From Lytechinus pictus (Eukaryota): DNA of 64,000 nucleotides. Both the position numbers and the translations under genes were made by a program. The DNA lies in assembly GCF_037042905.1 (NCBI RefSeq), contig NC_087250.1:27468001-27532000 (forward strand), given 5' to 3'. Below the pieces are notes generated by a model. That model had not been told where the DNA came from, made no database searches, and worked only from the letters and a program-made list of their open reading frames with translations. Positions 2,860 through 62,533 of this stretch are shown piece after piece. Within the stretch, counting starts at the first letter, position 1. Every line of letters starts with the position of its first letter.

Positions 2860-4917
2860 TTTTTTAGAGAGTAAAAAAGGGGCCTAAGCTTTCGATCCTA
2901 GCAGAATCTTCGTCGGAGGCAAAATGACAAACATATAAAGTGGAACAACCATAATATAGACCACAGACAAGCTACAGCAACACTAGAAACAAGGAGACAA
3001 AAGGGGCATAAGTGAGTAGAGAAGACCAATCAGGTTAGTGAAGGGGATGAAAGAAAAGGAGTAGGCAGACACAAAGGGAAGTTAGTGTAAGTAAGGCCAG
3101 TAAAAGACCTCAAGCCAAGAGGGATTAAGATAATGAGGCAGGCAACATCAAACAGGATCTGGAACAAAACAGTGATATAGAGGGTATGAGGAAGAGATGA
3201 ATAACAAGATAATTAGTGAGAGGTGGGTCAAACAGGTTACAAAGAAAGGCATAATAAACTGGTGCATATAAGAGTGGGGAAAAAAAGGAAAAGAATGGGG
3301 AACAACTGGTAATGTGCAAAAGACATATAAGTATATATATGATAAAGCATTAAACAAACTAAGAGAAGAAGGTAAGTGTAAATATGTAACTATAAGTGAT
3401 ATGTATATAAATATATCCAAAAAAGAAATGTATATGAAAAAATATAAATACACATATGGTGTAACTGATATTGTAATCCGCTAGGTGTGACAGGAAAAAA
3501 CATAAGACTATATATATAGTAGGGGAAAAAAAACAAAAAAAACAACAACCTGTATTTGTGAAAAAGAGGAAGCAAATTGCCTAAAAAGGTAAAAGCAAAT
3601 ATAGAAGAGAGGGGGTGTATTATGAAGAAACCATAGTATACATGTAAATAAGCAAATGTGGTAAATCTAAAAGAGGTGAGTGGAGAAAAAAAAAATATAT
3701 ATAATAATTATTATGTCGCCTGAATAAGGAAGGAAAAGTGGGAGGAAAGTAGAGGAAGAAACTATAATGTATCTATTCAAAAGAGCTGAGGGGAAAAAAT
3801 TATATGTATATATAAATTGAAAGTGGATAGGAAAGAAAAATCAGTCGTTCCCCTCTTGGATGTTCAGGCCATGAGGTTGGGTGGTGCGAAGTCGTCTCAT
3901 CCAGAGCTTCTCTCTGCTAGTACGGACTGAGTCAGGACGGTACCTATAGATTCGATGCCCTGTAGCATCATGTCAGTGATGGAGTGGTTGGGGAGGTTAA
4001 AATGGCGGCCAACTGGAGTGTCCAGCTTTGCTGTGTTGACGGTGGATCTGTGCCCGTAGAATCGTTTCTTGAGTGTGGTCTTGGTTTCCCCTATGTATTG
4101 TACCCTACAAACTCTGCAAGTGATGAGATATACAACATTAGTGGTAGTGCATGTGATGTTGCCCTTGATTTGGTGAGACAGGCTGGTGGAGTTGCTGGTG
4201 AAAGTGTCGCCCTCGTGAAGAAGGTGTATTTCACATATATGATGCACCTGTTGCTGGTGCATTTGAAGGTGCCATGCTGTATATGGGAGAAGAATGGTTA
4301 GTGAGGGAGGGTACTTCAGCACGAACAATGAGGTCCCTGAGATTCGGTGGGCGTCGGTATGCTAGAAGGGGAGTATCGGGAACGGCCTAGCCTGTTGGAG
4401 ACGATCAGAAGTGTGTAAAATGTGGTGGTTATCACAAAGGATTTTGCGGAGAGGGGGTAGATTGGGATGGAAGGTGGTCACAAGCGGTATTCTGTCGGTA
4501 GTCTCCTTGTCACTTTTAGGTTTGAGAACTTCAGATCTGGGGAGAGAACGAACTTTGTTAATTGCCAGTTGGACTGCCCTGGCCCCGTGGCCCCTGGCAC
4601 AGAGATGTTTCTGCAAATTCCTGGCATGGAAGGAAAAATCAGGGTCCTCGGAGCAGATACGGCGAAGTCTGAGGCCGGCTTGACTGCAAGCGATGCCGGT
4701 TTTGCAGTGACGGGGGTGGCAGCTGGATGAGTGGAGGTACTGGTGGGTATCTTTGGGTTTAGAGTATAGGGTATATAGTGGTGATACTGTTAGACTTTTT
4801 CTGGACTGTGACATCAAGGAAGTGGGTTTCCTGTTGGGAGAAATCAGAAGTGAATTTGATGGTCCTGTGGAAAGAATTGATGTGGTCAATGAATGTATGG
4901 AGGCTATCTTCATCCCT
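2860..4917 (-). mobile_element. 5'-truncated Penelope-like retroelement (RT C-terminus + GIY-YIG endonuclease + long 3' region), frameshifted
   Basis: YSKPKDTHQYLHSSSCHPRHCK..LRLRRICS, DRIPLVTTFHPNL; GIY-YIG NVVYLITCRVCRVQYIGETK..LKKRFYGH; C-terminal REKLWMRRLRTTQPHGLN ending at stop 3841-3843. Confidence 0.9.
2882..2920 (-). ncRNA. Minimal type I hammerhead ribozyme motif (variant core) at the 3' end of the Penelope element
   Basis: Minus strand GCCU CCGACGA A GAUUC-UGCUA-GGAUC GAAA GCUU AGGC: stem I GCCU/AGGC, stem II hairpin, GAAA, palindromic stem III; core is CCGACGA rather than CUGANGA. Confidence 0.7.
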
Positions 4918-7330: not shown

Positions 7331-9585
7331 TTAGCTGCGGGTATGAGCTGATTTTTCTCATCTTCTGCACTTAAACTGCAGATCCGATGCGTTATTTCAT
7401 GAAGCTAAAAAATGGAATTATTCCATGGACCATTAAAAAAAAAAAATATCTACAATTTCAAAATACTTTACTCTGCAGTGCTGCCAAAAATCACGAATAT
7501 TACCCCGAGTTTGAATAAATGGGAGAGTGGTTTTGTTTATTTCTTCACATAGATACAAAGCATTGGGTGCATTTTTGGTGTTTCAAAAAGCACATTTGCT
7601 CTAATAAAAATGCTGATAGTTTAAAAACAAGCACATGAACCCCTATTTTTTAATGTTTGTACCTCTTAGGTATACCTTCCTCTGCAACTCTGCAAATTTT
7701 GGTGAAAATGACATGGATTTTGAATAAAGTGCAGCATTTATTGTACGTTTGTAGTTTGTTACTGAAATTTCACATTTTTTAGATTGGGATTTTGTTATCT
7801 CTTACGTCATTTTTAAGAACTGACAGTGCTGTTAAACTTAAAATTGCAAACAAATAGCACTATGAATAGATTCTCCATTCTAACGATACAATTATTAACT
7901 CTCTTGCGAAATTTGATGACCTTTTCACGTATTTTGACTGAGTAATAGAGAATTAAACTCATTGTAGTAATCTTGGACGGTCTAAAAATGCCAAATTCTT
8001 TTGAATGCGCAATTCTTAAGAACATCAATTTGGGTGAACTTTGAAGCTCTATAGCAAAAAATCAAGCACATGGACCTATGTTAATTTTTGCATATTTCGA
8101 GTATTAAGGTTCTAAAGTATCTATGTGCAAAGTTTGGTGAAAATGACATGGATTTCACTTTAACTGTGGAATAAATTTAGTACACTGTAAAGATTTAGGC
8201 GTGTTTCATATTCACACATTCTTGGTGATGAATGAAAACGTCAAAGTTCATTATGAAATGACATGCGTTGTGCGAGGTTAGTACAACTAACCTCGCATGC
8301 TTGTGTGAGTGGGAGTGTTGGGACTGTAAACAATGCCGGATAGATCTGGACCATTTCTGCACAGCGATTTGGAGATCGCTGATTGGTCAATCATGTCATG
8401 ACTACGTGGTCGCCAAAATAATTACTTCGGACCGCGTACGGAAGTATCGATAGCGGTAACGATATCCTGTCACATTGTATACGGTCTTGGTTCGTGATCG
8501 GATCGCTCCAGCTCAGTGTAGGCCTATTGATAGAATATTATCAAGACGCTGCAATTTATTTTATGCATATTCAAGCGACGCTCCAAAAGGCAGTGGCTGG
8601 ATGACGTAATTTAATAAGGGTCTTTGTTCTGAAAACGAGCGTACACTCTTCAACAGCACGCATTTCCCATTCAGTCGGCAGAAATGTTGGATGTTTTGGA
8701 GAGTGCCATATTAGAAAGGGTGTCAAATTTTCCGCCGTGGGGAACTCCCGTGGTGGCCATTCCAGTTTTTCTTGCGATAGATTGAACAAGTGCGAGCGCG
8801 GCAGCGATATTTCTGGTGGAAATCACTTCCCCCTTATGAGATTGTCTGTCTTGAAAAGAATAAAGATTTACCATCATCTTCATTTTACAGTCACCATGAT
8901 CTCCAAAAGAGTGGAGGTATCACCTAAGAGAGAAAGAGAGAGTGATCTCATTGTCAAAAAATTTACAAGCAAAGTGTATCATTATCATGTTCTAGATAGA
9001 TGACACAATATTATTTTAACTCTTAGCCCACCACGAACACCCTCCTGCGCCGCATTAATTTCAAGTGCAACCTTTAGAGGGGTTTAGCATGGACTCTGCT
9101 AATACAGCTCACTTAAGCTTTTGTTTGGTTTAGTGTAAAGAAAAACTTTGCGATGCACTCATCACTAATTTGTGTATGAACAATAGACTAATTGCACTTG
9201 GTTTGTATTGTAAATTTATTTATTTATTTATTTATTCATGCATGTTCACAATATACAATGTAAAAGAATACACAGATAATGTATAAATATATATATATGA
9301 AAACACAAGTAAATAATGAACAAAGGTGTTACAACATAAGCTAAAAGCTTGATTGGTTGAAGCACCTTTAAACTGGTTTTGCATCCAAGAAAACAAAATA
9401 AAAATGTAAGAATAAGGAAGAGAGGAAATAGAATGTGGCTTGAATCTAACTTGGCTGTCTGCTCTCTGTGACTAGTTGAACAATGCAGGCAGAGTTAATA
9501 ATCTTTTTGTTTAATTCTTTCTTCCCACCTTTCCTCAGAAGGATGTGTACCAAAGATTTACTCGAAGGAGTATTGTTTGCAGAAG

Positions 9586-10173
9586 ATGAATAGCATGATT
9601 CAAAGAACAACAAGACTTGTTTCATCTTGTAGACTTCAACTACAGGTGTTTGCAGCATGTCACAGTCACTCGCATACAGCAAGGCATAGTGTGTTTCACT
9701 TTCCTAGTCTAAAAACACATGGAGGAGAGGCTAATGTTTTGCTTAATGGCAGAGTTTTTAAACGGAATCTGTCAGCATTATCACAACGTAGATCAGAGTC
9801 AGACATTTGTAAACTCCAAAGAGCTCTTTGCAGGAATTTGAAACAAAGCTCGTCATTGCTATGTCAGATGAACCAAGTTAATTGCATATGTGTCGGTCCA
9901 AGGAGATTCAAGGATAGTAGACAGATGTTGAATAGACCGGTACATCATCATTTCTCAACAATAGCTTTATATTCTGTACTGAATGTTTGCCGCAAGAGAA
10001 GATATAACCAGTCTGCAGTCACTAGTGCCTTCACATGTTGCAGAGTTCAAAGGTATGGATCCAGTGCTGTTGGAAATGAGACCGGTGATCCCCTCTCACC
10101 TAAGAGCCCACAGTTCAGATGCTACATGGATCATCTGAGAAATGAGCACCAGGCCATCTCAGATAGACTTCAG
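9586..10173 (+). CDS. MTRF1L: MTRF1L coding exon 1 (basic, presequence-like N-terminus)
   Basis: Open frame ending CAG|GTTAGT, phase 0 matches the next exon. Confidence 0.7.
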
Positions 10174-13100
10174 GTTAGTACCATTCTCTTTCCTGCAGTA
10201 GTATTGAGAGGAATCTAACATTTTATTTACCTGTTCAGGGATCTGTTTCATTAAACTTGTTTTAAACAAATCTGCAAAGCTAATGAAATCCTTCAATGTG
10301 ATTGGCTGGTAGTAAATTTGTTATTGAAATGGTTCATTATAATAAGTCTAAGTCATGGGACAGAGACCCGTTTCCACAAGCAGTTGTAAACATTAGTGCA
10401 ACATGCGTACAAACCTTGATTGTGATTGGTTGCTGAGCCATGTTTAAATTCAAATTCAAATATATTCAACACTCATCATAAAAACACATTATAATATTAT
10501 AGAAGTAGAACATAAAGGGAGATGAATATAAGATATAGAATGACAAAACACAAGGTATAAACATAATGAGAGTCTCAGGGTTAGCAGAAAGGAGGAGATT
10601 CCTTATATAATTGCTACCCCCAACAAAATCCTAAAATTGAAAGTGGTAGATGTACATAAAAAATACTACACATAAGAAACTACACTGAGGTCGTTCAATC
10701 CCCGATCGAGTCATACCAAAGACTTGCAAAAATTGCGACCTTCTGCCTTCTTTTAGGCGCAGAATTTAGATTGGAGAAGGGTAATAATAACATTATTATG
10801 CCCACTGGTAAAGTAGTTTCCTAACTGAAGTGGCTACTCTAGGTAAATAAAACATTATTAATATTACTTATTATAGATATAAGATACAGCAGTTATATTT
10901 TCCCTTTTGTTTTGTTTGTTTTAATAGGGAGGGGAGCCGTTGTCAGACTCTAAACAGAAGGAGCTCCGGGGATCCAGGATGGAGCTTGGTGAGATCCTTG
11001 AGAAATGGAACGAACTGATATCAATGGAAGAAGAGATCAATGAAATTCAGCATCTTATCCAAGGTATGTAGTGGTCTTGATTTAAATGTGATTTTAGAAA
11101 AATATGAAAAATAAGGATAAATTTGTGATATCAGCTGGCATTCTGATAGCTAAAACTAACAGTGATTTTAGTCAATGCTTCTGTGGAATGCAAGTGTTCA
11201 TATCCTCCTGCAGTACACGTATCCATGACAGCTTATTTCCAATCGTCAAATTGCAAACTCGTCTACTATCGTTTGGTCTACCATCAGTTAGTCCACTCAC
11301 CAAATGGTCTACTTTCATTTTAATAGTCTAATGCCATTCTGTCTAATAACCAGTTGGTCCAATAGCCATATACCATTTGGTCTAATTGGACTAAGTGTTA
11401 AATTGTGCAAAGTGAATGAAAGTAATATGGATACTAGACCAACTGGTTATGAGACGAAATGGTCATAGATGAAATGGTGATTAGGTGAAGTGATGATTGG
11501 ACTATTTTTGTTTAATGGACCAAATGGTTGTTAGACGAAATGTTGATGGATGGAATGGCATTAGACTAAATGAAAGACCATGTGGTGAGTGGACGAGTTG
11601 GCAAATACCATAATAGTAACTTTTATGCAATGGGGCACTGATCTTCTTTGCGACCATTTTCTCCTGACTCATTGGAAGTTTTTTAATAGGGCCGTCTGCA
11701 CCAGCCCGAGTTTTCAAATTAGTGCGCGATTTCTGATCCGGTAAATTATCCCGATCTGAAAAATCTCGAAATTATTTGTAATGGAGACGCAATTTCGCTG
11801 GATTAATTTCGATATTGCAATCCCAAGTCAACTTGGGATTATTTGCAAAATAGTGCGCTATTTTCCGAATTATCTCGCTAATGTGCATGTGCAGGTGCAG
11901 ACGCACTCGGGATTATTTATTCATGGCGTCATACCATAATGAGTCGATGCCTTGCTCGAGCAAGAATCGCTCTTCTTGGGATAGTGGACACAGGGTTTCT
12001 TGAATCTCGAGATTAATCACAAAGAGGGCCGATTGGGCTAAAATCTTGAGATTAAGGAAACTCTGGCTTGTGCAGCACTGCCTATTGAGATTGCATTATA
12101 TGCACATCTCATGCTTGAGTGAACCCTGAATATTCTGTTAATCATTAGATGGTCATGATAAAGAGATGCAGGATCTAGCTTTGTCTGAGAAGGATCAACT
12201 TCAGGATAGGATTGAAGATGTATCACAAGAGGTAAGACCAAGAAAATCTCAATAGGCTCATTTTTGTCTCACCTGCATAGCAGAGTGAGACTATAGGCGC
12301 CGCTTTTCCGACGGCGACGGCGGCGTCAACACCAAATCTTAACCTGAGGTTAAGTTTTTGAAATGACAGCATAACTTAGAAAGTATATGGACCTAGTTCA
12401 TGAAACTTGGCCATAAGGTTAATCAAGTATTACTGAACATCCTGCCTGAGTTTCATGTCACATGACCAAGGTCAAAGGTCATTTAGGGTCAATGAACTTA
12501 GACCATGTTGGGGGAATCAACATCAAAATCTTAACCTAAGGTTAAGTTTTTGAAATGTCATCATAACTTAGAAAATATATGGACCTAGTTCATGAAACTT
12601 ATACATAAGATTAATCAAGTATCACTGAACATCCTGCATGAGTTTCACGTCACATGACCAAGGTCAAAGGTCATTTAGGGTCAATGAACTTTGGCCGAAT
12701 TGGGGGTATCTGTTGAATTACCATCATAACTTTGAAAGTTTAAGGATCTGATTCATGAAACTTGGACATAATAGTAATCAAGTATTACTGAACATCCTGT
12801 GCAAGTTTCAGGTCACATGATCAAGGTCAAAGGTCATTTAGGGTCAATGAACTTTGGCCAAATTGGGGTATTTGTTGAATTACAGCCATAAATTTGAAAG
12901 TGTGTTGGTGTAGTTCATAAAACTTGGACATAATAGTAATCAAGTATCACTGAACATCCTGTGCGAGTTTCAGGTCACATGATCAAGGTCAAAGGTCATG
13001 TAAGGTCAAAGAACTTTGGCCACGTTGGGGGTATTTGTTGAATTGCCATCATATCTCTATAAGTGTATTGGTCTAGTTCATAAAACGTGGAAATAAGAGT

Positions 13101-16100
13101 AACCAAGTATCACTGAACATCTTGTGCGAGTTATAGTAGTTTTCAAAATCAGCACTGCTGCTATATTGAATCGCGTGATGCAGGTGAGACGGCCAGAGGC
13201 ATTCCACTTGTTATCTCAGCCATTGTTTTTATGATGAGCTATTTTAAAAGAAGTGATGTTTATTTCTGGCTGCTCTTAAACTATCATTACGTAATGAATA
13301 ATTCTGTAAAGTTCGAAATTGCCTTCTATTGAGTTGTAAAGCAGTTTTTTAACTGAATCGAATTACCCTCATTTTTTTTTACTGATCAATAAAACGTGAA
13401 ATAAGTAAATAATTACCTTTGTTTTGAAGTGAAATTATTGACATTAATTTATTTGGGATGGAAATAGTCCATTAAGATAATTTTTTAGCAATTCGTATGG
13501 TCAAATTTACATTTTGCTTTGATATATACAATATGAATTTATTCTGACCTGATTTGGCAGATGCTAATTATCATTTAATATTGTCATACAATTCAAATAC
13601 TGTTTCAAGGGAGAGGGCCTTCAGTACACAAGGTATTGATAGGCTGCACATTCAGACCCTTATTTACTGGAGTGAAGTGTTTGCACCACAGATGTGGGGC
13701 CAGTTTCATAAAGAGTTACAACTGCTGTAACTTTGCCATTATGGCAACTACCATGGTTACCTTGACTTTGATTGGCTGCTGAGCCATGTTATCATGGTAG
13801 TTGCCATTATGGTAAAGTTACTGCAGTTGTAACTCTTTATGAAACAGGCCCTAGCATTTAATCTTGTCTGATCCATTAAAAGTGAAAAAAGTGCCCTAGA
13901 TGCTGTAACGCAAATCTTTCAATTGAACTTGGACCGATTTTCATGCCTTATTGCATATATGTTGTGATCATTATAACAGCAATCAAGCCAGCAAATCTAT
14001 TGTATGGTAGGGGGTCCTAAAGCTACGCGGGTCCTAAAGCTACGCACCACTCCAATGCGCATGCAGTTTCAATTGCAAAATGCGCACTCTGTGTGTGTGG
14101 AGCTAGTGACTGCAGTGTGACGAACGATTCCTAATCAGTTTTGGTACAGAGGCTGCAATAAATCGCTAAATACAGAGAAAACCAGCGACTGTTTGGAATT
14201 TTGGAGTTATATTCACTTTGATTTCATATTTTCCTATAAGAATATGAACATTATTTAGAAGTTTAGAGACAGGAAATACTTTTTCTTTGCATGATAAATT
14301 GAGTGCGTAGCTTTAGGACCCCTCTATATCGGGCGGCGAAATCAAGAGGTGTTCGGAAAACACGGCGGGATTTTCGTATTAGTGAGTTTTGTGATATTTT
14401 CTTTTTGGTTATGAATCTTTACAATATTTAACACAAATTTGTGAAAGATGATTTGTTAGAATATTAAAATTGGCATAGTTTTTATCGTTTGTAAACAAAG
14501 TGCGTAGCTTTAGGTCCCCCCATCATATACTCTGCGCTATGCCATTTGCTCTGATGAGAATGGCTCTGCTCTAAATTCCACATACTAATCGATGGACCAT
14601 CTTCAACCCTGGGTTTAACACTATACCATATCCTAACATACATCCCATTGCAACCATAACCCTACATCTGAGATAAAATTAAGCCCAGAGCAATTGTTGC
14701 AGGAGTTGTGTCACTGCATAATCAAGCCATAAATATGATCATGATCATTTGACCAGCGATCAAGCTAGCAAATCTGAGCTCCATTGCATCAAAGTTTGTA
14801 GTGTTGTTGAAATAACATAAGAGCCAATGTAGACAACAGATATATGAGATTCAGTCTTGACTCTCTGAGTCCAGTTTAATGTCTGATTCAATGTTGTACA
14901 TTTAGGTGTGGCTTCACTCAAGCACGATAGTGCAATTCAATAGCTCAAATTAAACATGTAATATTACAATGTATGCAGTAAATAACCAGGTGGTGACCTG
15001 AATATCTTAACTGTTAATGCACAACATTACTTTGAATAAATTATAGTTGCATCAATAATTGTATACACAACATTGTTACCATCATGGTAACTTTACCTTC
15101 CAATGGTAAATTGCAGGTAATCCTTGATTTTGATTGGCTGTTGGTCGTTGTTACCATGGTAGTTACCATTGGATGACAAAGAAATCATAATACTTTTTAT
15201 GCAACGGGGCCCCAGTGTCTGATCAAAGGTTTGTGTGACAGTCCATTCCATCTAATTTCTTTTGTCTTTCCTCTATAGTTGGTTGACCTTCTAATGTCAT
15301 CCGAAGAGACTGATGATAATGATGTCATAATGGAGTTTTCAGCAGGAGTGGGAGGTCAAGAAGCTATGCTGTTTGCCTCTGATATGTTTGACATGTATCA
15401 ACGATATGCAGATTACAGACGTTGGTCCTTTACAATCCTCGAGTACTTTACCTCAGATATAGGTTAGTAAAAGTCGTATTGTTTGGAACTGGAAAAATGT
15501 TGATGAAACGCTCCCCTGTGATAAAGGAGTCTTTGTTATGTGTGAGTAGCATGATCATCATGGTATGTTATTTTGTTGACTCTGAGACGATAGCTCTTTT
15601 CTGTCCTTGATATTTTCCTCGGGTATCATATTGCAAAGCGTGTTCAGATCTTTTAAAACCAATTGACTGATTGCAAACAAAATCGGTAAATGGACTGACT
15701 AATCAAGACCAATGTTACTTGTGCATTTTGTTCAACATACTAACCAGGAACCAATCAGAAGTGTTCTTTTATATTTACAGGTACTTTTTTTTCTTTTGAT
15801 CCCCTTTCCTTTCTCTCTCCATATATCTCTTGATCCTGGCAATATGCAAGAATGTACGAATGTAGTCTTGGAAGTTTTCATTATACCTAAGATCAATGGT
15901 ATACAGTATACAGGATATGTTTAAACATTGTACCGTAAAGTGTAATTAATGAAATGTATACTTGTTTTTGTAGTTGTGTAATTCCCATTCATTTCAGTTT
16001 GTTAACTAATGTGGATAATTTAAATTAATACCATTTATCTACATGTATCGATCTATTCATCTATCAATGCCTGATCTTTTCAAATCAGTTTATCTGGATA

Positions 16101-19100
16101 AAGCAGTTTCTATTACCGAAGAGACCACCCTGTCTAAAAAAATAGATAAATCAGTTACTTCAATTTTTTTTCCTAGGTGGATTAAGGCATGCTACCGTTA
16201 GTATCACCGGTGATCAAGCTTATCGTCTTCTAAGACAGGAGGCTGGCGTCCATCGTGTTCAGAGGGTACCAAAGACAGAGAGACAAGGGCGTATACATAC
16301 AAGCACCATGTCAATAGCGGTACTTCCACAACCTAAAGAGGTATAAACCAAGGGCGTTTACATACTATTTCCATGTCTGTAGTGGTACTACCACAACATA
16401 AAGAGGTACAAAAACAAGGGCGTATATAAACAAGTACCATGTCAATAGCGGTACTACCACAACCCAAATAGGTATAAACCAAAGGCGTATACATACTAGT
16501 ACCATGTCAGTAGCGGTACTACCACAACCCAAAGAGGTATAAACCAAAGGCGTATACATACTAGTACCATGTCAGTAGCGGTAATACCACAACCTAAAGA
16601 GATATAAACCAAGGGCGTATACATACTAGTACCATGTCAATAGCGGTACTACCACAACCCAAAGAGGTATAAACCAAAGGCGTATAAATACTAGTACCAT
16701 GTCAATAGCGGTACTACCACAACCTAAAGAGATATAAACCAAGGGCGTATACATACTAGTACCATGTCAATAGCGGTACTACCACAACCCAAAGAGGTAT
16801 AAACCAAAGGCATATAAATACCAGTACCATGTCAATAACGGTACTACCACAACCCAAAGAGATATAAACCAAGGGCGTATACATACTAGTACCATGTCAA
16901 TAGCGGTACTACCACAACCCAAAGAGGTATAAACCAAAGGCATATAAATACCAGTACCATGTCAATAACGGTACTACCACAACCTAAAGAGATATAAACC
17001 AAGGGGGTATACATACTTGTACTATGTCAATAGCCGTACTACCACAACCCAAAGAGATATAAACCAAGGGCGTATACATACTAGTACCATGTCAATAACG
17101 GTACTACCACAACCTAAAGAGATATAAACAAAGGGCGTATACATACTAGTACCATGTCGATAGCGGTACTACCACAACCCAAAGAGGTATAAACCAAAGG
17201 CGTATACATACTAGTACCATGTCAATAGCGGTACTACCACAACCTAAAGAGATATAAACCAAAGGCGTATACATACTAGTACCATGTCAATAGCGGTACT
17301 ACCACAACCTAAAGAGATATAAACCAAGGGCGTATACATACTAGTACCATGTCTAAAGCGGTACTACCACAACCTAAAGAGGTATAAACCAAAGGCGTAT
17401 ACATACAAGCACCATGTCAATAGCGGTACTACCACAACCTAAAGAGGTATAAACCAAGGGGGTATACATACTTGTACTATGTCAATAGCGGTACTACCAC
17501 AACCCAAAGTGATATAAACCAAGGGGGTATACATACAAGCACCATGTCTATAGCGGTACTACCACAACCCAAAGAGATATAAACCAAAGGTGTATACATA
17601 CAAGCACCATGTCTATAGCGGTACTACCACAACCCAAAGAGGTATAAACCAAAGGCGTATACATACTAGTACCATGTCGATAGCGGTACTACCACAACCC
17701 AAAGAGGTATAAACCAAAGGCGTATACATACTAGTACCATGTCAATAGCGGTACTACCACAACCTAAAGAGATATAAACCAAAGGCGTATACATACTAGT
17801 ACCATGTCAATAGCGGTACTACCACAACCTAAAGAGATATAAACCAAGGGCGTATACATACTAGTACCATGTCTAAAGCGGTACTACCACAACCTAAAGA
17901 GGTATAAACCAAAGGCGTATACATACAAGCACCATGTCAATAGCGGTACTACCACAACCTAAAGAGGTATAAACCAAGGGGGTATACATACTTGTACTAT
18001 GTCAATAGCGGTACTACCACAACCCAAAGTGATATAAACCAAGGGGGTATACATACAAGCACCATGTCTATAGCGGTACTACCACAACCCAAAGAGATAT
18101 AAACCAAAGGTGTATACATACAAGCACCATGTCTATAGCGGTACTACCACAACCCAAAGAGGTATAAACCAAAGGCGTATACATACTAGTACCATGTCAA
18201 TAGCGGTACTACCACAACCCAAAGAGATATAAACCAAGGGCGTATACATACAAGCACCATGTCAATAGCGGTACTACCACAACCCAAAGAGATATAAACC
18301 AAAGGCGTATACATACAAGCACCATGTCTATAGCGGTACTACCACAACCCAAAGAGGTAAAAAACCAAGGGTGTATTTATACTAGTATTATATCTATAGC
18401 ATTACTGCCAAAATCTAAAGAGATGCAACCTAACAAGCACCATTTCTATAATGGTACTACCACAGCCTAAACAGGTGCAACTTTCCACAAACATAAAATA
18501 TTTGAGAATGTTGGTAAAATAGCTTCATAATGTTTTGAAAACTTTTTAGAACACTCTGAAATCATTTTGTGTTTGCTTAATACCCACCTCACTATTGTTT
18601 GTCTTATTGGTTAAAAGTTTTAGTTATCTTGCATTTCAATCTGTAGCAAGTAGGAAGTATTGTGACATCACTGTCATAGCATTAGTTTGCCTCTCCCCTT
18701 GTTAGCTACAGTATATACCTGTGCAGCTTAGAATACATGTAGTTATTGGCTAATTCTATGAAGTAAAAAATACCAGCCATGACTTGAAAATAAAAATAAA
18801 ACTCTAATACCTTGGTCACATTTGCTCTATGGCAGCCATACGGCAAGTAAAGAACAGCTTTTTAATCATTTTTTTTTACCAGCTACATAGGTGATGTGAA
18901 TAAAAATGAATAAAATGGCTGTTTTCGACTCGCCGTACGGCTGCCGTAGAGCAAATCTGACTGAGGTACTAGTATTAGTTTCATATTCCTGTTGCATGGC
19001 CTGAATACATAAAATGGATGTGTTTGGATTACTATAAATAATAAATTGTTCTAATTTCTGTTTTGGGCATAAAATTTTGTATTCCTTTCATTCTGAATTT

Positions 19101-22100
19101 TTACTCTTTTAACTTAGATTGATCTGAAACTGGACCCTAAAGATCTGAGGATTGAAACAAAGAAAGCTAGCGGAGCAGGAGGTCAGCATGTGAATACAAC
19201 GGACAGTGCTGTTAGAATTACCCATATACCAACAGGTATTATATATCTACTACAGACAGTGCTGTTAGAATCACTCATATACCAACATGTATTATATATC
19301 TACTACAGACAGTGCTGTTAGAATCACTCATATACCAACATGTATTATATATCTACTACAGACAGTGCTGTTAGAATCACTCATATACCAACAGGTATTA
19401 TATATCTACTACAGACAGGTATTATATATACATGTGGGGGTTTTCTGCCCCTAAGACTACGGTGCGTCCCCGAAAAAACTATACACTTTTGAAATAGCTG
19501 CCAAATAAAAAGTATATAACTTCGGGGGGAAAGACTTATATATATGGAAAGCCAATAAAGTCATCAAATGACATCAAAATGTTGGAAAACTATTCATGCT
19601 TGAGTAAGCACTACCCACTTAAACAGAGGGTATGAGAATTAGGGTGGGCAGGAATTAGCCTTTCGGTTTCTTTCAGTTTTTGAGAGGCGAGTCCCTTGGA
19701 ACTTGCAAACTTGAGGGTGTTGTGATGAATTAATGGTCATTCATTATCAATTTAAATTGTTAGAGCAAATTTCATGAATTATCAAATTGAAATTCCATGC
19801 ATGAGTGAGCGCGAATTGCAAATCTTTAGTGCAGCATTTTAACTTTACAATGTGGGTCTCAGCAGTGTGTTGATTGGAGTCAGGAGAATAGGGGTAAGAA
19901 GTGACTTCAGTGGGTGAAGTAAGCTGATGGACCTACAGGTCCGTCCCCCCCCCCTCCTGTTGAGAGTGAGACTGATTGCTATTACATGTACGCATTAAGT
20001 GCAGAGCGGACTGTCAATTTGATAATAAATTCTGAAAATTAGGTCATCAACTTTTACCTATCAATCATTTAATCAACAATCTGTTAGTAAATCAACTCAA
20101 TCAATGTGATCAATCAAATATTCATCTTTTTCAATAAATTATCATTCAAACATTCAGCTTTTTCAATAAATCTTTTCATTAATCATCATAATTAGTCAAA
20201 TTCTTAATAATCATTCAATGGAAAAGAAAGACCCATCAACCATAATTCACTTGGCATTTAAGTTTTAAATACCATCAAGGAGAGAGAAAGGGGGTGGAGG
20301 GCAGGCATGAGTACATGACATGTAATTTGTAAGAGAACACAAAGAAGAATGCCCCTTTAACCCAGTTTTACCATATCTCACCCCCTTGCATGTAACAGGT
20401 ACCATCACATTACTCTGACTCTCACAACCACACTTGCTAAGATCCACATAATAAACTAAAAATGCTACACTAAAATTACAATTCCTGTTTACTCATGCAT
20501 TACATTTCAATTTAGTAACTCATCAAATTTGCTTAAGAAACCAAAACTGATCTCAATTCATCAGTAATTTAGCATAACACCCTTAACTTTGCAAGTTTCA
20601 AAGAACTCACCTCTAAAAAAAAGTGGAAGGCTAATTCCTGCTCACCCTAGCAAATGCTAGCCTCTTAGGAGGGGTGAAAGGGGTAGAGAGGGGGGGGGGG
20701 GGGTTAAGTGTTCTGTTGACCCATATCCCGTCAACCTACTTCCCCCACCTAAGACCCATCCCTATTCTGACTTCCATGAACACATTGCTGAGATCCACTT
20801 GAAAAAGTGAAAAATTGTATTTCATGTTCACTCATGCATTAAATTTCAATTTAATAATTCTTGAAATTTGCTCTCAAAAGTAAAAACCTAAACTGATAAT
20901 GCTTGATCATTGATTTATCAAAACACCCTCAACACTGCAGCACGTTTGGTCACCCTATCCAAAAAACATGTTCATATCACACCCATTCTGAAATCTCTAC
21001 ATTGGTTAAAGGTCAACGATCGCATCATCTTCAAAATCCTTCTCCTTGTATTCCATGCAATTAACGGCTCTGCTCCACAGTACAATATTAATCTAATCAA
21101 CAAATACACTCCTGTCAGGTCCCTACATTCATCCAACTCTGGTTCCCTAGTTATTCCCAAATCCGTTAAGACATGGGGGTTCAAGCTTTTGCTCATGCTG
21201 GCCCTGTTCTCTGGAATGATCTTCCCCTGGATATCCGAGAATGCACTTCTATCGACACATTTAAACGTTACCTTAAGACTCGTCTATTCAATGATTCTTA
21301 CTCTTAATTGTTCCTGAATCTATTACTATTATATTTGTACTTTTTCTCTTTCTTTCTTTCACTGCGCCTTGTGCACTCTGCCGAGTGGATTCGGCGCATT
21401 ACAAATCACATATATTATTATTATTATAAAAGAAAGGTCTGATGAAACACATGACCACCATCCCATGTTATCAATATTTTTTTAACGATACAGTCCTTTA
21501 TATCAAACGTTAGAAGTTATCTTTATGAATCTTGAATATTTGGTGCATTATACATTATTTTGTCTGGGGTTTGTCAGGTTTGCTTTTATTTTGTTCAATG
21601 CTATGTTAATTATTGTTTTGCATCTTATGTCTTGTTTTAATTTTCAATCTTACTTCTTTTTAAGTTATTTTTTTTTAGGATCAAATGGAAGGACAGGTAT
21701 ATTTTGTAAATATCACTGAAATGGGCTACCCTTCATTGAAAAAATTGTTTTGATTTTCACTTATTTTATTTGTGATTTTAATATGGAAAGTAAAAAAACC
21801 AAACAAACAATCAAAAACTAGGTGAGAGAAGTAGATGTGAACAATTGAGCATATAAGCAATCAAATTCAAGTTGCAGCATCTTCAACAAGTCTTTGACAA
21901 AAGATATATATTTTACTTCTTTCTTATGCCTATTTAGTTCAATTTTGTTTTGATCTTGAATAAGGTATCTCGGCTGAAAGTCAACAAGAGCGTTCCCAAC
22001 ACAAGAATCGTTCGATTGCCATGACGATGCTACAGACTCGAATCTACAACCGGATCCTTGAAGACCAGACCAACTCTGAAAGATCGATGCGTCGTTCACA

Positions 22101-22326
22101 GGTGGGCACAAGAGGGCGCTCTGAAAAGATTCGTACTTATAATTACCAGCAAGATAGGATCACGGACCATCGGATCAGTCGTAGTATCCATGGAGTAATG
22201 GAGTATCTACTAGGATCTGAACACTTAGATGAAATGATGGTTAGTTGTATGGAAGGCGAGGAGTGTCAGAATATACAAGAAAGAATCCTAGAAGTTTATG
22301 ATATGAGCAAAGAGAACTCAAGATAG
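9586..22326 (+). CDS. MTRF1L: Mitochondrial peptide chain release factor 1-like; coding exons 9586-10173, 10928-11063, 12149-12231, 15279-15462, 16177-16340, 19118-19235, 21965-22326 (~544 aa if the first ATG is used)
   Basis: All six introns are GT-AG and phases join in frame; motifs [20 protein letters not shown] (PxT), [55 protein letters not shown]. Start codon uncertain. Confidence 0.93.
10689..10875 (+). mobile_element. 5'-truncated tRNA-derived SINE-like fragment
   Basis: B-box-like GTTCAATCCCC, ends AATAAA + (ATT)n-like tail. Confidence 0.4.
10928..11063 (+). CDS. MTRF1L: MTRF1L coding exon 2
   Basis: Polypyrimidine tract + [33 protein letters not shown]. Confidence 0.85.
12149..12231 (+). 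CDS. MTRF1L: MTRF1L coding exon 3
   Basis: [37 protein letters not shown]; supplies the required phase 1 to 0 change. Confidence 0.85.
12261..13212 (+). mobile_element. Non-autonomous Helentron-like (HINE) element with ~5 internal 162-192 bp tandem repeats
   Basis: T-rich ends, asymmetric subterminal IRs GTCTCACCTGCA / TGCAGGTGAGAC, GC microsatellite near the 5' end; near-identical copy at 23113-24079. Confidence 0.75.
13696..13851. mobile_element. Short palindromic MITE (Harbinger-like GGGCC ends); relatives near 10237, 15070-15213, 27333
   Basis: GGGCCAGTTTCATAAAGAGTTACAAC / GTTGTAACTCTTTATGAAACAGGCCC. Confidence 0.6.
14004..14526. mobile_element. MITE with repeated GGTCCTAAAGCTACGC terminal motifs
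   Basis: Motif occurs twice at left and inverted at ~14303 and ~14500; TA flanks. Confidence 0.55.
15279..15462 (+). CDS. MTRF1L: MTRF1L coding exon 4
   Basis: [27 protein letters not shown]. Confidence 0.92.
16177..16340 (+). CDS. MTRF1L: MTRF1L coding exon 5 (PKT motif)
   Basis: [40 protein letters not shown]|gtataa. Confidence 0.93.
16284..18480 (+). repeat. 65-bp tandem array (~34 units) derived from the last 57 nt of MTRF1L exon 5 plus the first 8 nt of the intron
   Basis: Unit CAAGGGCGTATACATACAAGCACCATGTCAATAGCGGTACTTCCACAACCTAAAGAG|GTATAAAC; the first unit is the exon itself. Confidence 0.97.
18809..18967. mobile_element. Short palindromic MITE
   Basis: CCTTGGTCACATTTGCTCTATGGCAGCC / GGCTGCCGTAGAGCAAATCTGACTGAGG. 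Confidence 0.55.
19118..19235 (+). CDS. MTRF1L: MTRF1L coding exon 6 (GGQ motif)
   Basis: [39 protein letters not shown]. Confidence 0.93.
19196..19430 (+). repeat. 53-bp tandem array (4 units + partial) derived from the 3' end of MTRF1L exon 6 plus donor site
   Basis: GACAGTGCTGTTAGAAT at 19202, 19255, 19308, 19361. Confidence 0.95.
19460..20900. mobile_element. Tc1/mariner-like non-autonomous element with internal inverted blocks; same family at 63711-64000
   Basis: TA|CGGTGCGTCCC..AAAAAACTATACACTTTTGAA left end matches TA|CAGTGCGTCTC.. at 63711; right end not clear. Confidence 0.55.
20925..21427 (+). mobile_element. 3' fragment of an L2/CR1-group LINE
   Basis: [40 protein letters not shown], typical ORF2 C-terminus; 3' stem-loop and (TAT)n tail. 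Confidence 0.85.
21965..22326 (+). CDS. MTRF1L: MTRF1L last coding exon
   Basis: [40 protein letters not shown]. Confidence 0.9.
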
Positions 22327-22425
22327 GATCACGGACCATCAGATCACTCATAGTATCAATGGAGTATCTACTAGGATCTGAACTCATAGGTGAGATGATG
22401 GTTAGTTGTATGGAAGGCGAGGAGT
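22150..22425 (+). repeat. Partial tandem duplication (169-bp period) of the MTRF1L last exon, spanning the stop codon
   Basis: CAAGATAGGATCACGGACCATC..GTTAGTTGTATGGAAGGCGAGGAGT at 22150 and 22319. Confidence 0.92.
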
Positions 22426-23081: not shown

Positions 23082-24750
23082 CCCTAATAAGACTAGGGGG
23101 CCCTCCTTGACATTTTTGTCTCACCTGCATAGCAGAGTGAGACTATAGGCGCCGCTTTTCCGACGGCGACGGCGGCGGCGGCGACGGCGGCGTCAACACC
23201 AAATCTTAACCTGAGGTTAAGTTTTTGAAATGACAGCATAACTTAGAAAGTATATGGACCTAGTTCATGAAACTTGGCCATAAGGTTAATCAAGTATTAC
23301 TGAACATCCTGCCTGAGTTTCATGTCACATGACCAAGGTCAAAGGTCATTTAGGGTCAATGAACTTAGACCATGTTGGGGGAATCAACATCAAAATCTTA
23401 ACCTCAGGTTAAGTTTTTGAAATTTCATCATAACTTAGAAAATATATGGACCTAGTTCATGAAACTTATACATAAGGTTAATCAAGTATCACTGAACATC
23501 CTGCTCGAGTTTCACATCACATGACCAAGGTCAAAGGTCATTTAGGGTCAATGAACTTTGGCCGAATTGGGGGTATCTGTTGAATTACCATCATAACTTT
23601 GAAAGTTTATGGATCTGATTCATGAAACTTGGACATAATAGTAATCAAGTATTACTGAACATCCTGTGCAAGTTTCAGGTCACATGATCAAGGTCAAAGG
23701 TCATTTAGGGTCAATGAACTTTGGCCAAATTGGGGTATTTGTTGAATTACAGCCATAAATTTGAAAGTGTGTTGGTCTAGTTCATAAAACTTGGACATAA
23801 TAGTAATCAAGTATTACTGAACATCCTGTGCGAGTTTCAGGTCACATGATCAAGGTCAAAGGTCATGTAAGGTCAAAGAACTTTGGCCACGTTGGGGGTA
23901 TTTGTTGAATTGCCATCATATCTCTATAAGTGTATTGGTCTAGTTCATAAAACGTGGAAATAAGAGTAACCAAGTATCACTGAACATCTTGTGCGAGTTA
24001 TAGTAGTTTTCAAAATCAGCACTGCTGCTATATTGAATCGCGTGATGCAGGTGAGACGGCCAGAGGCATTCCACTTGTTGGGATAAATCTGCCGCACAAA
24101 TTTTTTTGACCGCGTCGTTCGCTGAATTTTTTACTTTCAAGTCTCGCGCAACTTTTGACACCAAAATTGCAACCCCCGGGTACGTGGTTCCAAAATTAGG
24201 CAACATTTTGTAAGTGCATGCAGACACAAAATTTCTCGAAAACATGAATTTGTGTACAAATCCAATGGAAATAGTATTTTGAGCCAAAATTCATGAATGT
24301 ATCATTATTTTTCCTTTTACTGCTTAAAATCAATTAATTTCATCTTGTCTATGGTAACAATAAAAAACTAAAAGTCGAAAAACAAAGAAATACATAAGAA
24401 ATTTAGAATACAATAAAACATATACGAAATAAATGTGATGTTGATTTTTTTGCAATAAATTTGATCAGATTCCTATAAAGAGTCTGTGAAACAATATTTA
24501 GCATTTTAGGGTCAGTATTTAGTTAATTAGAGCAAACAGTTGATTTTACGCATAAATTAGCCTAATTATTTAGCAATGAGATTTTTCTCAGAATTTGATC
24601 TCATAGTTTTATAGATTATGCCATGGGTAACGCGCGTGCCAATTTTCGTTGCGATAGCGTGATTGACGGCCGAGATCATAAGGGGGGCTGAATCAGCCCC
24701 CCCCCCCCCCCAGTCTTCTTAGTCGTCGAAATGGCCCAGTCTTTTTAGGG
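23082..24750. mobile_element. piggyBac-like MITE carrying a nested HINE
   Basis: TTAG|CCCTAATAAGACTAGG ... CCCAGTCTTTTTAGGG|TTAA. Confidence 0.7.
23113..24079 (+). mobile_element. Second copy of the Helentron-like (HINE) element
   Basis: Near-identical to 12261-13212 with a longer GGC microsatellite. Confidence 0.75.
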
Positions 24751-28840: not shown

Positions 28841-29241
28841 ATATTCTGTTTCTGGCAAATTGGGATCTGAATCTGATTCTGCAGTTCTTCATTTGAAGTC
28901 TAGGTGTAAACATTCAGATTTTAAACGATTGTGAACAGGTAATGTAACTTCTAAATTTTAAAATGATCCATCTTAAAATAGTAATTTGTAGTTATAATGG
29001 GATGGGAGATGATTATGTAATGCTGAAACACAAGGTACATTAGCTAAAGTAGTTTTTTTTTCATTATCAAGTTTATCTTTTGCATTAATGTTGACATGTA
29101 TGAGAAGGTGCATGGGTAAGTTACATAACTTATTTCTTGCCATTGAAGCTTATTTTAATTTCATTTCTTCTGAAGCTTTTAACCTCACATCTCTTACATT
29201 TTTACTTTTTCCAGAGCTAAACAATCATCAGACATCACATC

Positions 29242-30894
29242 ATGGCATCAAGATTTCCAGAAGGAAACCAACTTCAACTCCGACCGAGAAAAGGTCATGA
29301 CATGAAATGGTCATGTGACAAGCATGGTGAGCCAATCAAATTTTACTGTAAGAAACACAAAATTCCTATATGTCATCCATGCGCTACCAAAGATCACAGT
29401 CAGAAACCATGTGAGCTAGACGACATCGAGGATGTCATCTTCGAAAGGAGGAGACAGCTAGATGAAAAACGGCCAAAATTTCAAGGACTTCACAAACAAT
29501 TGGAAGCCCTCAGCACGAAAATAAAGACTGTGTCAACGTCTGGAAGTACTCATCTTCGGACAATTAACAACAACATTCAAGATTCATATCACGACAAGAT
29601 CGAATCTGTTGGAGAAAAGGAGAACAGGATGATTAGGGTTATTAACGAGGAGGCAGATGAGGAAATAAGACTAGTAAATGAGAAGAGAGAAAAACGGATC
29701 AAGGATTGCAACACCGAGAGAGAAAATGAGCGACAAATCATCAAAGACAAAGAAGCAAAACTTCTAGCAGATGCAAAGAAAATCAGCGAAGTCGTTTCTA
29801 AGAAGATCAAAGATCTGACTGATAAGAATCAGCATGTAATAAACACTGTAAAGAACATTGAATCAACCATCACACGTATAAACCAACATGATGAAACATT
29901 GGTAAATGAAGCTCCTCAAGTACTTGCATCTATTGATGAAAATTTAAGTTTGAATGTTCATCAAGATGTTAGCGTCTGTCTTGACCGAATACAGAGTGAA
30001 GTTGAGAGAGTGGAGTTTGTAGAGGGGGAAGTAGGTGGAGAATACTGTGGTAGAATTGGTGGGTATATCGGTAAATGGGAACTTGTCAAGTCAATTCACA
30101 TTCCATCGGTTGTTAATAACCCGTGTGTGAATTGTTTAGTCAGTGATGATGAGATATGTGTGCGAGACGTAGGTAACAATGGCATGTATATTACAAACAT
30201 CAACACTCAACACACAGAGAAAGTCATTGATGAAGGTGTGTGGATTACATCATGTGCGCTCATAGACAGTAACGTAATAGTATGTGGTAAGGAGACAGGT
30301 GATCGCACGGGTGACAGGTTGAATGGATGCATCACTCTCTATGACAGACAATGGAGCGTGATTAGAGACATCAGCATACCAAGGAATAGAGGCAGTAATG
30401 GTGTGTATGTTGATGTTGACAGGGATGGGATGATCATCGCTGCTCAGTTCGATCAGTCTAATATCTACGTCATCAATCCTGCTGATGATAAGATAGTAAA
30501 CACTATTACGATGCAGGGTAAGAAGGTGTGGGATGAGATACAAGCCTTGTCATCAGGTGATATCGTTGTGAAGACAGGTGATGATGAATTCACTGTCATC
30601 TCACGATCAGGAGAAGAGAAGGCTGTCATACACTGTGATGAGTGGTACGGCCCACAGTGTCGCGTTGACAAACTGACAGACACACTCTACATCGCGTACT
30701 GGGATGGAGCGCGTAATACCATCGCAGTTGATCAGGCGTCACGTGATGGTATCATCCAGGCAAGGAGGATCGTGGAATACGAGCAATCAGATCGCACTAA
30801 CTGGGTCAGCCCTTGTATCGTTACTCCTACTGGTAACTTTATAGGGTGTGATGGAGACAAACTTCTTATCTACAAGAAGACATACATCTTGTAA
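29242..30894 (+). CDS. B-box zinc finger / coiled-coil / beta-propeller-like (NHL-type) protein, RING-less TRIM-like, 550 aa, single coding exon
   Basis: CDKHGEPIKFYCKKHKIPICHPCATKDH B-box2 pattern, long charged helical region, beta-strand repeats (GVYVDVDRDGMIIAA..IYVIN); acceptor at 29214, upstream donor at 28938, AATAAA near 31063. Confidence 0.85.
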   Translation: MASRFPEGNQLQLRPRKGHDMKWSCDKHGEPIKFYCKKHKIPICHPCATKDHSQKPCELDDIEDVIFERRRQLDEKRPKFQGLHKQLEALSTKIKTVSTSGSTHLRTINNNIQDSYHDKIESVGEKENRMIRVINEEADEEIRLVNEKREKRIKDCNTERENERQIIKDKEAKLLADAKKISEVVSKKIKDLTDKNQHVINTVKNIESTITRINQHDETLVNEAPQVLASIDENLSLNVHQDVSVCLDRIQSEVERVEFVEGEVGGEYCGRIGGYIGKWELVKSIHIPSVVNNPCVNCLVSDDEICVRDVGNNGMYITNINTQHTEKVIDEGVWITSCALIDSNVIVCGKETGDRTGDRLNGCITLYDRQWSVIRDISIPRNRGSNGVYVDVDRDGMIIAAQFDQSNIYVINPADDKIVNTITMQGKKVWDEIQALSSGDIVVKTGDDEFTVISRSGEEKAVIHCDEWYGPQCRVDKLTDTLYIAYWDGARNTIAVDQASRDGIIQARRIVEYEQSDRTNWVSPCIVTPTGNFIGCDGDKLLIYKKTYIL

Positions 30895-47252: not shown

Positions 47253-47437
47253 TGTCATATCAGGGAGGGGAGCTTAAGAAAATACCCTTCCTGGTATGAC
47301 TATCACAACAACTCCATCAACAATACAAAACAGAAACAAACGGAAAATGAGGCAAAATTCATAAAATTACCTTAAAACTTATTTTATTACGCAAAGGCGC
47401 CCTCTTGCGCTGACAAGAATCGCACATGTACATGACA
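47253..47437 (-). repeat. 3' LTR (PPT AAGGGGGGAGGTA at 47438-47450)
   Basis: Direct repeat of 53536-53720. Confidence 0.95.
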
Positions 47438-48221
47438 TACCTCCCCCCTTAAAAGAAGAAAGTTATAGCAATTTAACTTTCTTTCATTTTAAAGGAGCAT
47501 GTTGAAATAGCATAACATTATAACGCTCAGAAGAACGAGGAATATGAAAACTAAAAAAATTCATTCAAGTGTATAGTCAAGACGTAGCATCATAAACATT
47601 TACAAAAAGAGATGCAGAAAACTTCAATCAATAACAAGTTGGTTTTACCTTAGGAATTCCAATATCACTTAAAAAAAAACATATGCCAATACAACAAGGT
47701 GACTTAACTCTGCAAGACTCTTGTCTTTTTATATACATACATATAAAACCTTTCTATAGCAACATGAGCTATTTAATCATAAAAAAATAAAATAAAATGC
47801 AAGAACTTTGATCCAGCTTCATGTTTACAAATGCAGAACCTGAAAAGAGAGAAAAAATAAATAAATGAAGAGAGTAAGAGTTAGAATATGTAGATTTGTT
47901 AGAACAGAATGAATTGTTCCATGTAATTGATAAAACGATTTCGTCATTAAAAGATAGTTGTTAATAAATTGTTAGAGACATTCATTTCAAAACATTGCTT
48001 GACCACCTGGATGTTGGAGTAAAAAGAAGAAAATCACCTTTTTTTTTTAAATTGTTATTATTGTTAGTGTTATTTGTTTTCTTTTAATATTTTTATGTGA
48101 ATAATAGTTAACGACCGGTTTGCAGCTTTCCGGTTATGTTTTTTTGTTTTTATTTTTTTATTATTATTGTTTTGTTTGTTGTTTCTAAGGAGGTTATTCG
48201 GCAATTGACTGTTAGATTTGC

Positions 48222-52818: not shown

Positions 52819-53515
52819 ATTTCTCTATCCAGTAAATTGACGGAAAAAAAAGAAGAATGAAAGAAAAGAAACAAGTATTTAGGAGATCTAACAACAGTAT
52901 GTCTAAAAAAAAATCATTAAAATGTCATGCGCCCATGCCACGGACCAGGCTATGTCACACGCGTTTCAGTTTTGAAACCATATGTTCAGGTCTAATGTCA
53001 AAATAGTATGACCTAGTCTAAGAGACAAAAAAAAAAAGGTCACATCAAAAACTCCTCTATTCTAAGAGTCTAACTCTAACGTTAAGGCTCTAGAATGGCA
53101 TAGGACCTAGACTGACTCAAGAATCAAGGATAGGTCTAAATCATCAAAGTAGACAACGTTACGAAATGTCCTTGCCGGCCAAACTCATCCAGGCAATGAA
53201 CAGAGCAGAATCGCGACGAAAAATGTCCTGGAAAGTGCAGAAAAATGCACAGTATTGACAGTAAGAATATTAAATAGCACCAGCCAACGACTGCAGTACA
53301 AGCTATTTAATAAATAGACCTAAATCCTGAAATCGAGACCACAAACAACGCCTACGCTACATGTAACTTAGTACAGAAGTAGCCGAGACAAGCAAGCAGT
53401 AGGCAAATGCCAAAGCAGAGAAAACCCCGACATCAAATTAGATACGTGGGACAATAACGTAAACAAAAGCGAGATCGGACACAACCCGAGCAAGAAAAAT
53501 GGCTTGTAAAATTAT

Positions 53516-53533
53516 ATTTCGGACAAGCCCCCA
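53516..53533 (-). other. Primer binding site, tRNA-Pro-like
   Basis: TGGGGGCTTGTCCGAAAT 2 nt after the 5' LTR; resembles the tRNA-Pro PBS TGGGGGCTCGTCCGGGAT. Confidence 0.8.
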
Positions 53534-53535
53534 TA

Positions 53536-53720
53536 TGTCATATCAGGGAGGGGAGCTTAAGAAAATACCCTTCCTGGTATGACTATCACAACAACTCCAT
53601 CAACAATACAAAACAGAAACAAACGGAAAATGAGGCAAAATTCATAAAATTACCTTAAAACTTCTTTTATTACGCAAAGGCGCCCTCTTGCGCTGACAAG
53701 AATCGCACATGTACATGACA
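53536..53720 (-). repeat. 5' LTR
   Basis: Direct repeat of 47253-47437. Confidence 0.95.
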
Positions 53721-53792
53721 CACAAATTACTCGCGCTTCGCGCTCGCATTTATTATTTTTGAAGAAAAAATGATATTACATATATATATATG

Positions 53793-54865: not shown

Positions 54866-55419
54866 GGGTACTAATGGATAATTCGTTTTTCAATCCTGAT
54901 TTTCGTAGAGCAAAAACGGAAGTCAACCTCATGGATTGGTCTTTGAAAACACAAAAACGAAATCACAACGAGAAAAACCCCGTTGTGATTTCATTTTTGG
55001 AGATCAAAAACAGAAGAATGAAATCAGAAATACTTTTGGTCCTCTCTGATACCTCATTCTATACCTGTGTTTGTTATATATTAAAAACAAAATCAGAACA
55101 CGCTTTCTACCCCGTGATTCTGTTTGGAAAAACGCAGACAGCGAAAACGAAATCGGGTAGTTCGCTTTCCACTTCCTGCTCTCAGATTTCGTCTTTCGCA
55201 CAGCCAACAGCCATCACACGTGCACGCAGTGCAGTGCATGCATGATACGACCACGTGCAACAAAAATTCACTTTAACATGGCTTTTTCCAGCGTTTTCGG
55301 ACCTTCGCAGACAGTGGCGTAGCTAGGATTTTTTTCCCGGGGGGGGGGGGGGGGGGGACTGGGGGTCCTTGCTTTTTCAGGGGGGGGGGGCACCGGCCAT
55401 TTTTTGCGGTGTGTGTGTA

Positions 55420-62400: not shown

Positions 62401-62533
62401 TAAATGTGCATGCGCCGGGTCAAATCAGTGTTTAACTGGTTGCCCGTGTCGAGCTCTACAAGTTAGGGTACGTGGTTACCCTGGCTAGGCCGTCGGGATA
62501 TCCCTGGGGCGCCCCTTGAAAAATTACTTTATT
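59499..62533 (+). repeat. 194-bp satellite array, ~15.6 units, with a 4-unit (775 bp) higher-order duplication
   Basis: 194-bp period; variant patterns at 60451/61226 and 60853/61628 recur. Confidence 0.95.

Follow-up and report, generated by a model that had tools for sequence, protein, structure and literature searches.

Tandem repeats that span exon-intron boundaries are known from amphioxus and human genes. The closest described systems are the amphioxus 'mirage' minisatellites of Adh3, the globin genes BflGb6 and BflGb9 and PGBD5, in which boundary copies lie in tandem, with unit lengths from some tens of base pairs up to about 160 bp and in variable copy number, with a homogenised core and diverged edges, normal splicing and, in PGBD5, more than one affected exon per gene (PMC3087553, PMC3902484). 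In human F7, the first unit of a 37-bp variable number tandem repeat (VNTR) in intron 7 spans the splice donor, identical pseudo-donors follow and the most upstream one is used; CBS intron 13, LMNB2, PDGF and 6-16 are cited alongside it (PMC1557585). Furthermore, human segmental-duplication genes carry internal tandem repeats at exon-intron boundaries, which are variable minisatellites that differ between recent paralogues (PMC2812944). Here, we describe a locus of this kind in the sea urchin Lytechinus pictus, the gene MTRF1L, which lies in a stretch of 64,000 nucleotides (NC_087250.1, positions 27,468,001 to 27,532,000 of the forward strand; hereafter the window, with its first letter as position 1). 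Exons 5 and 6 of MTRF1L are each followed by a boundary-spanning minisatellite, designated array A and array B; a third duplication, in exon 7, is of a different nature.

MTRF1L consists of seven coding exons, whose spliced product of 544 amino acids is a class I release factor with the Pfam domains PCRF and RF-1. RefSeq model P0124 (peptide chain release factor 1-like, mitochondrial [Lytechinus pictus]) is 100% identical to residues 181-544 of the window product, and a database search with the last exon returned L. pictus MTRF1L as the top match, followed by other echinoids. A protein search of the genome identified five MTRF1L copies (A-E) at 27.0-27.9 Mb of the contig, with copy B in the window; copies A to D have long open frames, and copy E is without exon 3. 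Arrays A and B are real boundary-spanning minisatellites of the mirage and F7 kind, since in both of them the tandem unit spans the exon-intron boundary and the real exon forms the edge unit. Tandem Repeats Finder (TRF) reports array A at 16284-18424 with a period of 65, 32.9 copies and 91% matches, and array B at 19195-19418 with a period of 53 and 4.2 copies; when array A was split into single units, 34 were obtained, the last two of which are degenerate. A repeat detector run on 54 base-shuffled loci returned no array, so the arrays are not due to chance. At the donor position of array A, half of the units have GT and the other 17 have AT, and 13 of the 34 share the 9-base donor of the exon. 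Its edge units are diverged, its core is homogenised, with 2.6-3.6 differences per 65 positions from its own consensus, and one block of eight units (520 bp) is repeated. In array B, units 2 and 3 carry a T instead of a G at the last exon position. The short remnant behind array B would correspond to a 53-bp unit that has lost 29 nucleotides (nt) between two ACAG words. The units of both arrays hold exon tails only, whereas tandem exon duplication would require complete exons, each flanked by an acceptor and a donor. In the single array A unit that was inspected, no pyrimidine tract precedes the AG sites.

An earlier note on this DNA, made from the letters alone, had proposed that the 3' ends of three consecutive MTRF1L exons are tandemly amplified. 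Its gene assignment and exon numbering hold, as do its counts of about 34 repeats of 65 bp at exon 5 and four of 53 bp at exon 6; the proposed amplification of the last exon with a 169-bp period, however, turned out to be one partial, decayed copy that starts at the stop codon and has no splice donor. Since a donor is missing and the duplicate starts at the stop codon, it differs from the tandem amplifications of arrays A and B and, as a single partial copy without a splice site, falls outside the mirage and F7 class. The exon 7 pair aligns over 115 columns with 87% identity, one 8-nt gap and an offset of 169 bases, and the duplicate is absent from the TRF list of the window. Sense RNA reads cover the duplicate, and it decays neutrally: six of its seven substitutions are non-synonymous and one is synonymous. 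All five gene copies bear the duplicate, which is longest in copy D, and it is also present in a DNA contig of a related organism. It was considered whether the duplicate had supplied a new stop codon; this is ruled out, as the protein of S. purpuratus terminates in the same column. Two orphan 3' fragments on the minus strand at 26.13 and 26.30 Mb (L036 and L037) contain the end of exon 7, the duplicate and downstream DNA with about 82% identity to the window.

Splice reads were taken from two RNA runs of the same species, of each of which about 6% was read, and cannot be assigned to individual paralogues. Among the joints listed, the first donor of exon 6 is joined to exon 7 (19235-21965) by 14 and 34 reads in the two runs, and no alternative exon 6 joint is found among them; one contig of a related organism also shows the first exon 6 donor joined. 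Read depth over the intronic units of array B is 0.69 and 1.02, compared to 14.9 and 30.7 in the bin that contains the exon end. For exon 5, the junction with exon 6 reads identically in every echinoid model covering it. If the exon 5 donor is read through, a stop codon follows at the second codon in all five copies, upstream of the GGQ motif, and use of later exon 5 donors would therefore be harmful; read-through of the exon 6 donor leads to a stop within array B in copies B, C and D. Consequently, an array can persist only if splicing continues from the first donor, as is known for F7, where the most upstream donor is chosen (PMC1557585), and for the amphioxus mirages. This supports the part of the earlier note according to which arrays growing 3' of an intact exon are tolerated. 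Its statement that the functional exon is the most 5' unit is confirmed by reads for exon 6, while the first exon 5 donor is probably functional as judged from conservation and RefSeq models. The RefSeq isoform P0126 of copy E, which uses a donor 24 nt downstream and thereby gains an insertion of eight residues, speaks against exclusive use of the first donors, and minor use of later exon 6 donors is possible.

Table 1. Positions of the MTRF1L exons, repeat arrays and duplicates in the window and of the exon-edge duplications in kinase genes.
Feature	Position	Strand	Remarks
MTRF1L coding exons 1-4	9539-10173, 10928-11063, 12149-12231, 15279-15462	+	exon-edge duplication: none detected
MTRF1L coding exon 5	16177..16340	+	last ~57 nt are array A unit 1; AG/GT edges, open spliced frame
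Array A	16284..18480	+	65-bp minisatellite of exon 5 tail and first intron bases; 34 units, 17 with GT
MTRF1L coding exon 6 (GGQ motif)	19118..19235	+	tail is array B unit 1; donor after 19235 used
Array B	19195..19394	+	53-bp minisatellite of exon 6 tail and donor; exon unit and 3 intronic units
24-nt remnant	19395..19429	+	ends in one more donor copy; in all five gene copies
Last coding exon (exon 7)	21965..22326	+	stop TAG 22324-22326; S. purpuratus protein ends at same column
Coding original of exon 7 duplicate	22150..22264	+
Exon 7 duplicate	22319..22425	+	single, decayed, in 3' untranslated region (UTR); starts at 8-nt word shared with stop-codon region
Kinase exon-edge duplication	L056:383-583 (coding orientation)		acceptor, period 140
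Kinase exon-edge duplication	L098:617-916 (coding orientation)		donor, period 190

The five MTRF1L copies form a cluster at 26.99-27.90 Mb (L031-L045), in which all of them lie on the same strand at a spacing of 0.1-0.5 Mb. Outside array A, their aligned DNA differs by 2.9-4.9%. Copy-number variation was measured between these five paralogues of one assembly: array A has 13, 34, 9, 47 and 100 units in copies A to E (11.3, 32.9, 7.3, 45.2 and 98.3 by TRF) and array B has 1, 4, 3, 5 and 1. The anchoring and terminal units are common to the five copies. As the features at exons 5, 6 and 7 are shared by all of them, they predate the gene amplification, and the lengths of the arrays changed after it. 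The Adh3 mirage is reportedly unstable in length in somatic tissue. GT is retained at the donor position of array A in 9/13, 17/34, 8/9, 23/47 and 98/100 units of copies A to E, one spurious terminal row having been removed in each of A, C and E. Selection against pseudo-donors was considered and is ruled out by these values, the intact copy C being among those with the highest retention. MTRF1L differs from the mirages in its echinoderm host and in the presence of five paralogues of one gene, and from the human segmental-duplication repeats, which often create introns or alternative transcripts (PMC2812944), in that its protein is unchanged in the intact copies. With 9 to 100 donor repeats, the five near-identical copies represent a natural experiment, in which the choice of the first donor can be compared with array length and exchange between intron repeat and exon can be followed. 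In L. variegatus, one MTRF1L protein is found among those in the cluster look-up. At window positions 22277, 22287 and 22304, most RNA reads bear alleles seen in few or none of the five assembled copies (for example, a C at 22304 in 20/30 and 36/56 reads of the two runs), which indicates that alleles or copy content differ between animals.

It is likely that the arrays are exon-anchored minisatellites of the mirage or F7 type that arise by microhomology duplication, are spared by selection when they grow 3' of the exon, and exchange sequence with the exon, where the outcome is filtered. Microhomology duplication is a general source of tandem repeats, by which a single copy becomes two at short shared words and further expansion is rare, and is not specific for splice sites (PMC13167724). 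At MTRF1L, an 8-nt junction word is seen directly at exon 7, a word of 5 nt may have served at exon 6, no clear word stands out at exon 5, and the ancestral state was presumably single-copy. According to this model, microhomology would first duplicate a short stretch across an exon end, as it may do anywhere in the genome. The duplicate would survive when the intact exon and its first donor stay in front and in use, with later donors leading to premature stops, and would then expand and contract as a VNTR, the step that the paralogues display. Finally, the exon would act as the only unit that is indispensable; selection would keep it clean, it would reseed the array, and contraction or conversion would sometimes move bases of an intronic unit into the exon, where working copies would keep harmless changes only. 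The arrays would have no function of their own, and the exon 7 duplicate would represent the first step alone, decaying in the 3' UTR. The arrangement of exon and array is known in kind and probably neutral.

Several observations point to exchange between arrays and exons. In F7, each unit contains four exon bases and is present in 5-9 copies (PMC1557585), whereas the MTRF1L units contain 41-57 exon bases in up to 100 copies, which makes exchange of complete codons with the exon possible. Copies A and E possess only one exon 6 unit, with the 24-nt remnant behind it; since the latter reads as an internally deleted unit, they probably once had more array B units. Their exon 6 tails carry array-type bases, and exon 6 of copy E has an Ile-to-Thr change that recurs in each of the two intronic units of copy C; among 124 motif-bearing proteins, this site is Ile in 119, Leu in three and Thr in two, both of which are copy E's own. 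Moreover, exon 5 of copy E has the CTA codon of the array, and the diverged array A units 2 and 3 are present in copies A to D and absent from E. Three of the ten exon tails are therefore candidates for array-to-exon replacement, although those of A and E could in part be retained ancestral states. Exchange of an exon with a downstream duplicate is known from the newt Nav1.4 exons 26a and 26b, which undergo gene conversion; there, however, the partners are whole expressed exons 180 kb apart (bioRxiv 10.1101/2021.03.25.437018), while at MTRF1L the partner would be an untranslated intronic repeat. For mirages, the available portions of the reports mention neither signs that array sequence replaces exon sequence nor a synonymous bias (PMC3087553, PMC3902484), and searches of the open-access literature, judged from their listings, gave neither an echinoderm mirage nor an array-to-exon replacement. 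If arrays exchange with the exon, exon ends beside them mutate by a route that is ignored by variant calling and by ratios of non-synonymous to synonymous substitution (dN/dS). The signs of exchange, together with the paralogue series, make MTRF1L a useful test case. A stronger version, in which the exon as master reseeds its intronic copies and collapse rewrites the exon so often that selection keeps the units coding-compatible, is conceivable but rather doubtful; if it were true at about 2% of exon boundaries, coding sequence at sea urchin exon ends would change to a sizeable extent through a source so far unrecognised. In intron 6 of copy A (L031), an insertion of 1,306 bp, which has inverted ends and is flanked by a target duplication of 6 bases, lies inside the collapsed array B and splits the remnant.

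Alternatively, this lineage might have a mutational preference for short duplications at exon ends, for example through transcription-, splicing- or nucleosome-linked repair; the first two had been suggested by the earlier note when it spoke of a process that targets exon-donor junctions. To estimate how frequent such duplications are, every Pkinase match whose open frame does not exceed 150 amino acids (54 of 132) was sampled blind to repeats and with flanks of 500 bases; their boundaries were predicted with a crude matrix and some may be wrong, and only one exon comes from the contig of MTRF1L. Exon-edge duplications were found at two of the 108 predicted boundaries, one on the acceptor and one on the donor side, compared with 0.67 expected from sliding intronic control points (0.62%; P = 0.15, 95% interval 0.2-6.5%); the test is small and compatible with an enrichment of several fold. 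The point estimate of 1.9% of boundaries against 0.6% of control points, and the two donor arrays and the stop-region duplicate in consecutive exons, speak for a mutational bias. On the other hand, the difference is not significant, the rate of arrays in the window that are not anchored at exons is 1.6%, transposon-borne satellites included, and the junctions fit microhomology duplication, so targeting is unsupported. Furthermore, if the first unit cannot be deleted, arrays anchored at exons would stay recognisable longer than others even if there were no bias at birth. Exons 1 to 4 were searched for older edge copies at two score thresholds, and none was found. Two donor arrays and one stop-codon duplicate are weaker evidence than amplification of three exon ends would be, and it was the pattern that led to the choice of the window. 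At 1.85% per boundary, the probability of at least two hits among 12 is 0.02, so that chance would produce many such genes in a genome. The two hits among the 12 internal boundaries of MTRF1L nevertheless exceed the 2/108 of the sample (Fisher P 0.049, before allowing for the choice of the window), so that local clustering may need a further cause, which is a point against duplication at ordinary rates. The 3' end of MTRF1L lies 1.03 Mb from the end of the 28.5-Mb contig, and human subtelomeres are reportedly enriched in VNTRs (PMC7608644), a further point against a bias specific to exon ends. Taken together, a mutational bias towards exon ends is unlikely.

Array A variants were scored over the exon-derived 51 nt, leaving out units with more than nine differences. 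Among 45 distinct variant alleles, 12 are synonymous, near the expected fraction of 0.24-0.26; however, the alleles that reach at least 50% in at least three copies are synonymous in four of four cases, compared to 8/41 of the remaining ones, and the same holds for the two founder differences of array B, so that the majority differences between array and exon are synonymous in six of six cases. In the other two frames, the array A majority differences are all non-synonymous. The core consensus still encodes the exon peptide in copies A, B and D, with no non-synonymous difference there and one in copy E, as opposed to 5-8 in the old edge units; the core is less changed than the edges, although a freely drifting core of equal age would show a similar number. 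One explanation is indirect selection, by which untranslated units are kept coding-compatible because damaging arrays yield broken alleles when they collapse into the exon. In line with this, non-synonymous and stop alleles reach 41-56% of units in copy E, which is without exon 3, whereas none exceeds 17% in the long arrays of the intact copies B and D. Nonetheless, the exact exon peptide is encoded by only 14/29 core units in B and 12/41 in D, the paralogues are not independent, and one synonymous conversion tract in addition to reseeding by the exon is sufficient without selection on the units. The exon 7 duplicate displays no such bias, and two kinase-gene duplicates are intermediate, with 5/8 and 4/7 synonymous changes. 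Selection of this type is therefore distinctly improbable. The bias itself was examined post hoc and at six sites, and it is most simply explained if the exon reseeds the array and synonymous changes are occasionally transferred back.

It could also be speculated that the repeated donors regulate expression, either via nonsense-mediated decay or via a longer in-frame isoform. The insertion in isoform P0126, the retention of the exon's 9-base donor in part of the array A units and the weakness of both anchoring donors, which score 0.1 and 1.1 in the crude matrix in comparison to a lower quartile of 2.6 for 54 kinase donors, are in agreement with this idea. However, P0126 belongs to the copy that is without exon 3, copy number varies about elevenfold, GT retention ranges without pattern from 23/47 to 98/100, and array B shows neither an alternative joint among those listed nor a depth much different from 1, which makes a regulatory role very improbable. 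That the arrays are assembly artefacts, an outcome the earlier note had itself considered, is barely credible. The copy numbers given are those of the assembly, and the exact values may differ, but each of the five diverged loci has its own unit variants and higher-order patterns, the older RefSeq model P0131 extends into array B, and the exon 7 duplicate also occurs in the contig of a related organism. P0131 also illustrates that such repeats can mislead annotation.

Several other elements are found in the window. A 970-bp element with internal repeats of 192 and 163 bp is present twice with 97.5% identity, at 12259-13212, just past the exon 3 donor, and at 23111-24079, 3' of MTRF1L. On the plus strand, positions 29221-30894 contain an open frame of 557 amino acids with a B-box zinc finger, which may be TRIM-like. 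A long terminal repeat (LTR) retrotransposon occupies 47253-53723 on the minus strand; its terminal repeats of 188 bp are 98.9% identical, and its reverse transcriptase, RNase H, integrase and SCAN domains are spread over two frames. A 194-bp satellite is located at 55419-56521 and 59497-62533 in opposite orientations, the two being about 92% alike. Finally, fragments with reverse-transcriptase and GIY-YIG sequences, presumably Penelope-like, lie at 141-623 and 3897-4361 on the minus strand.

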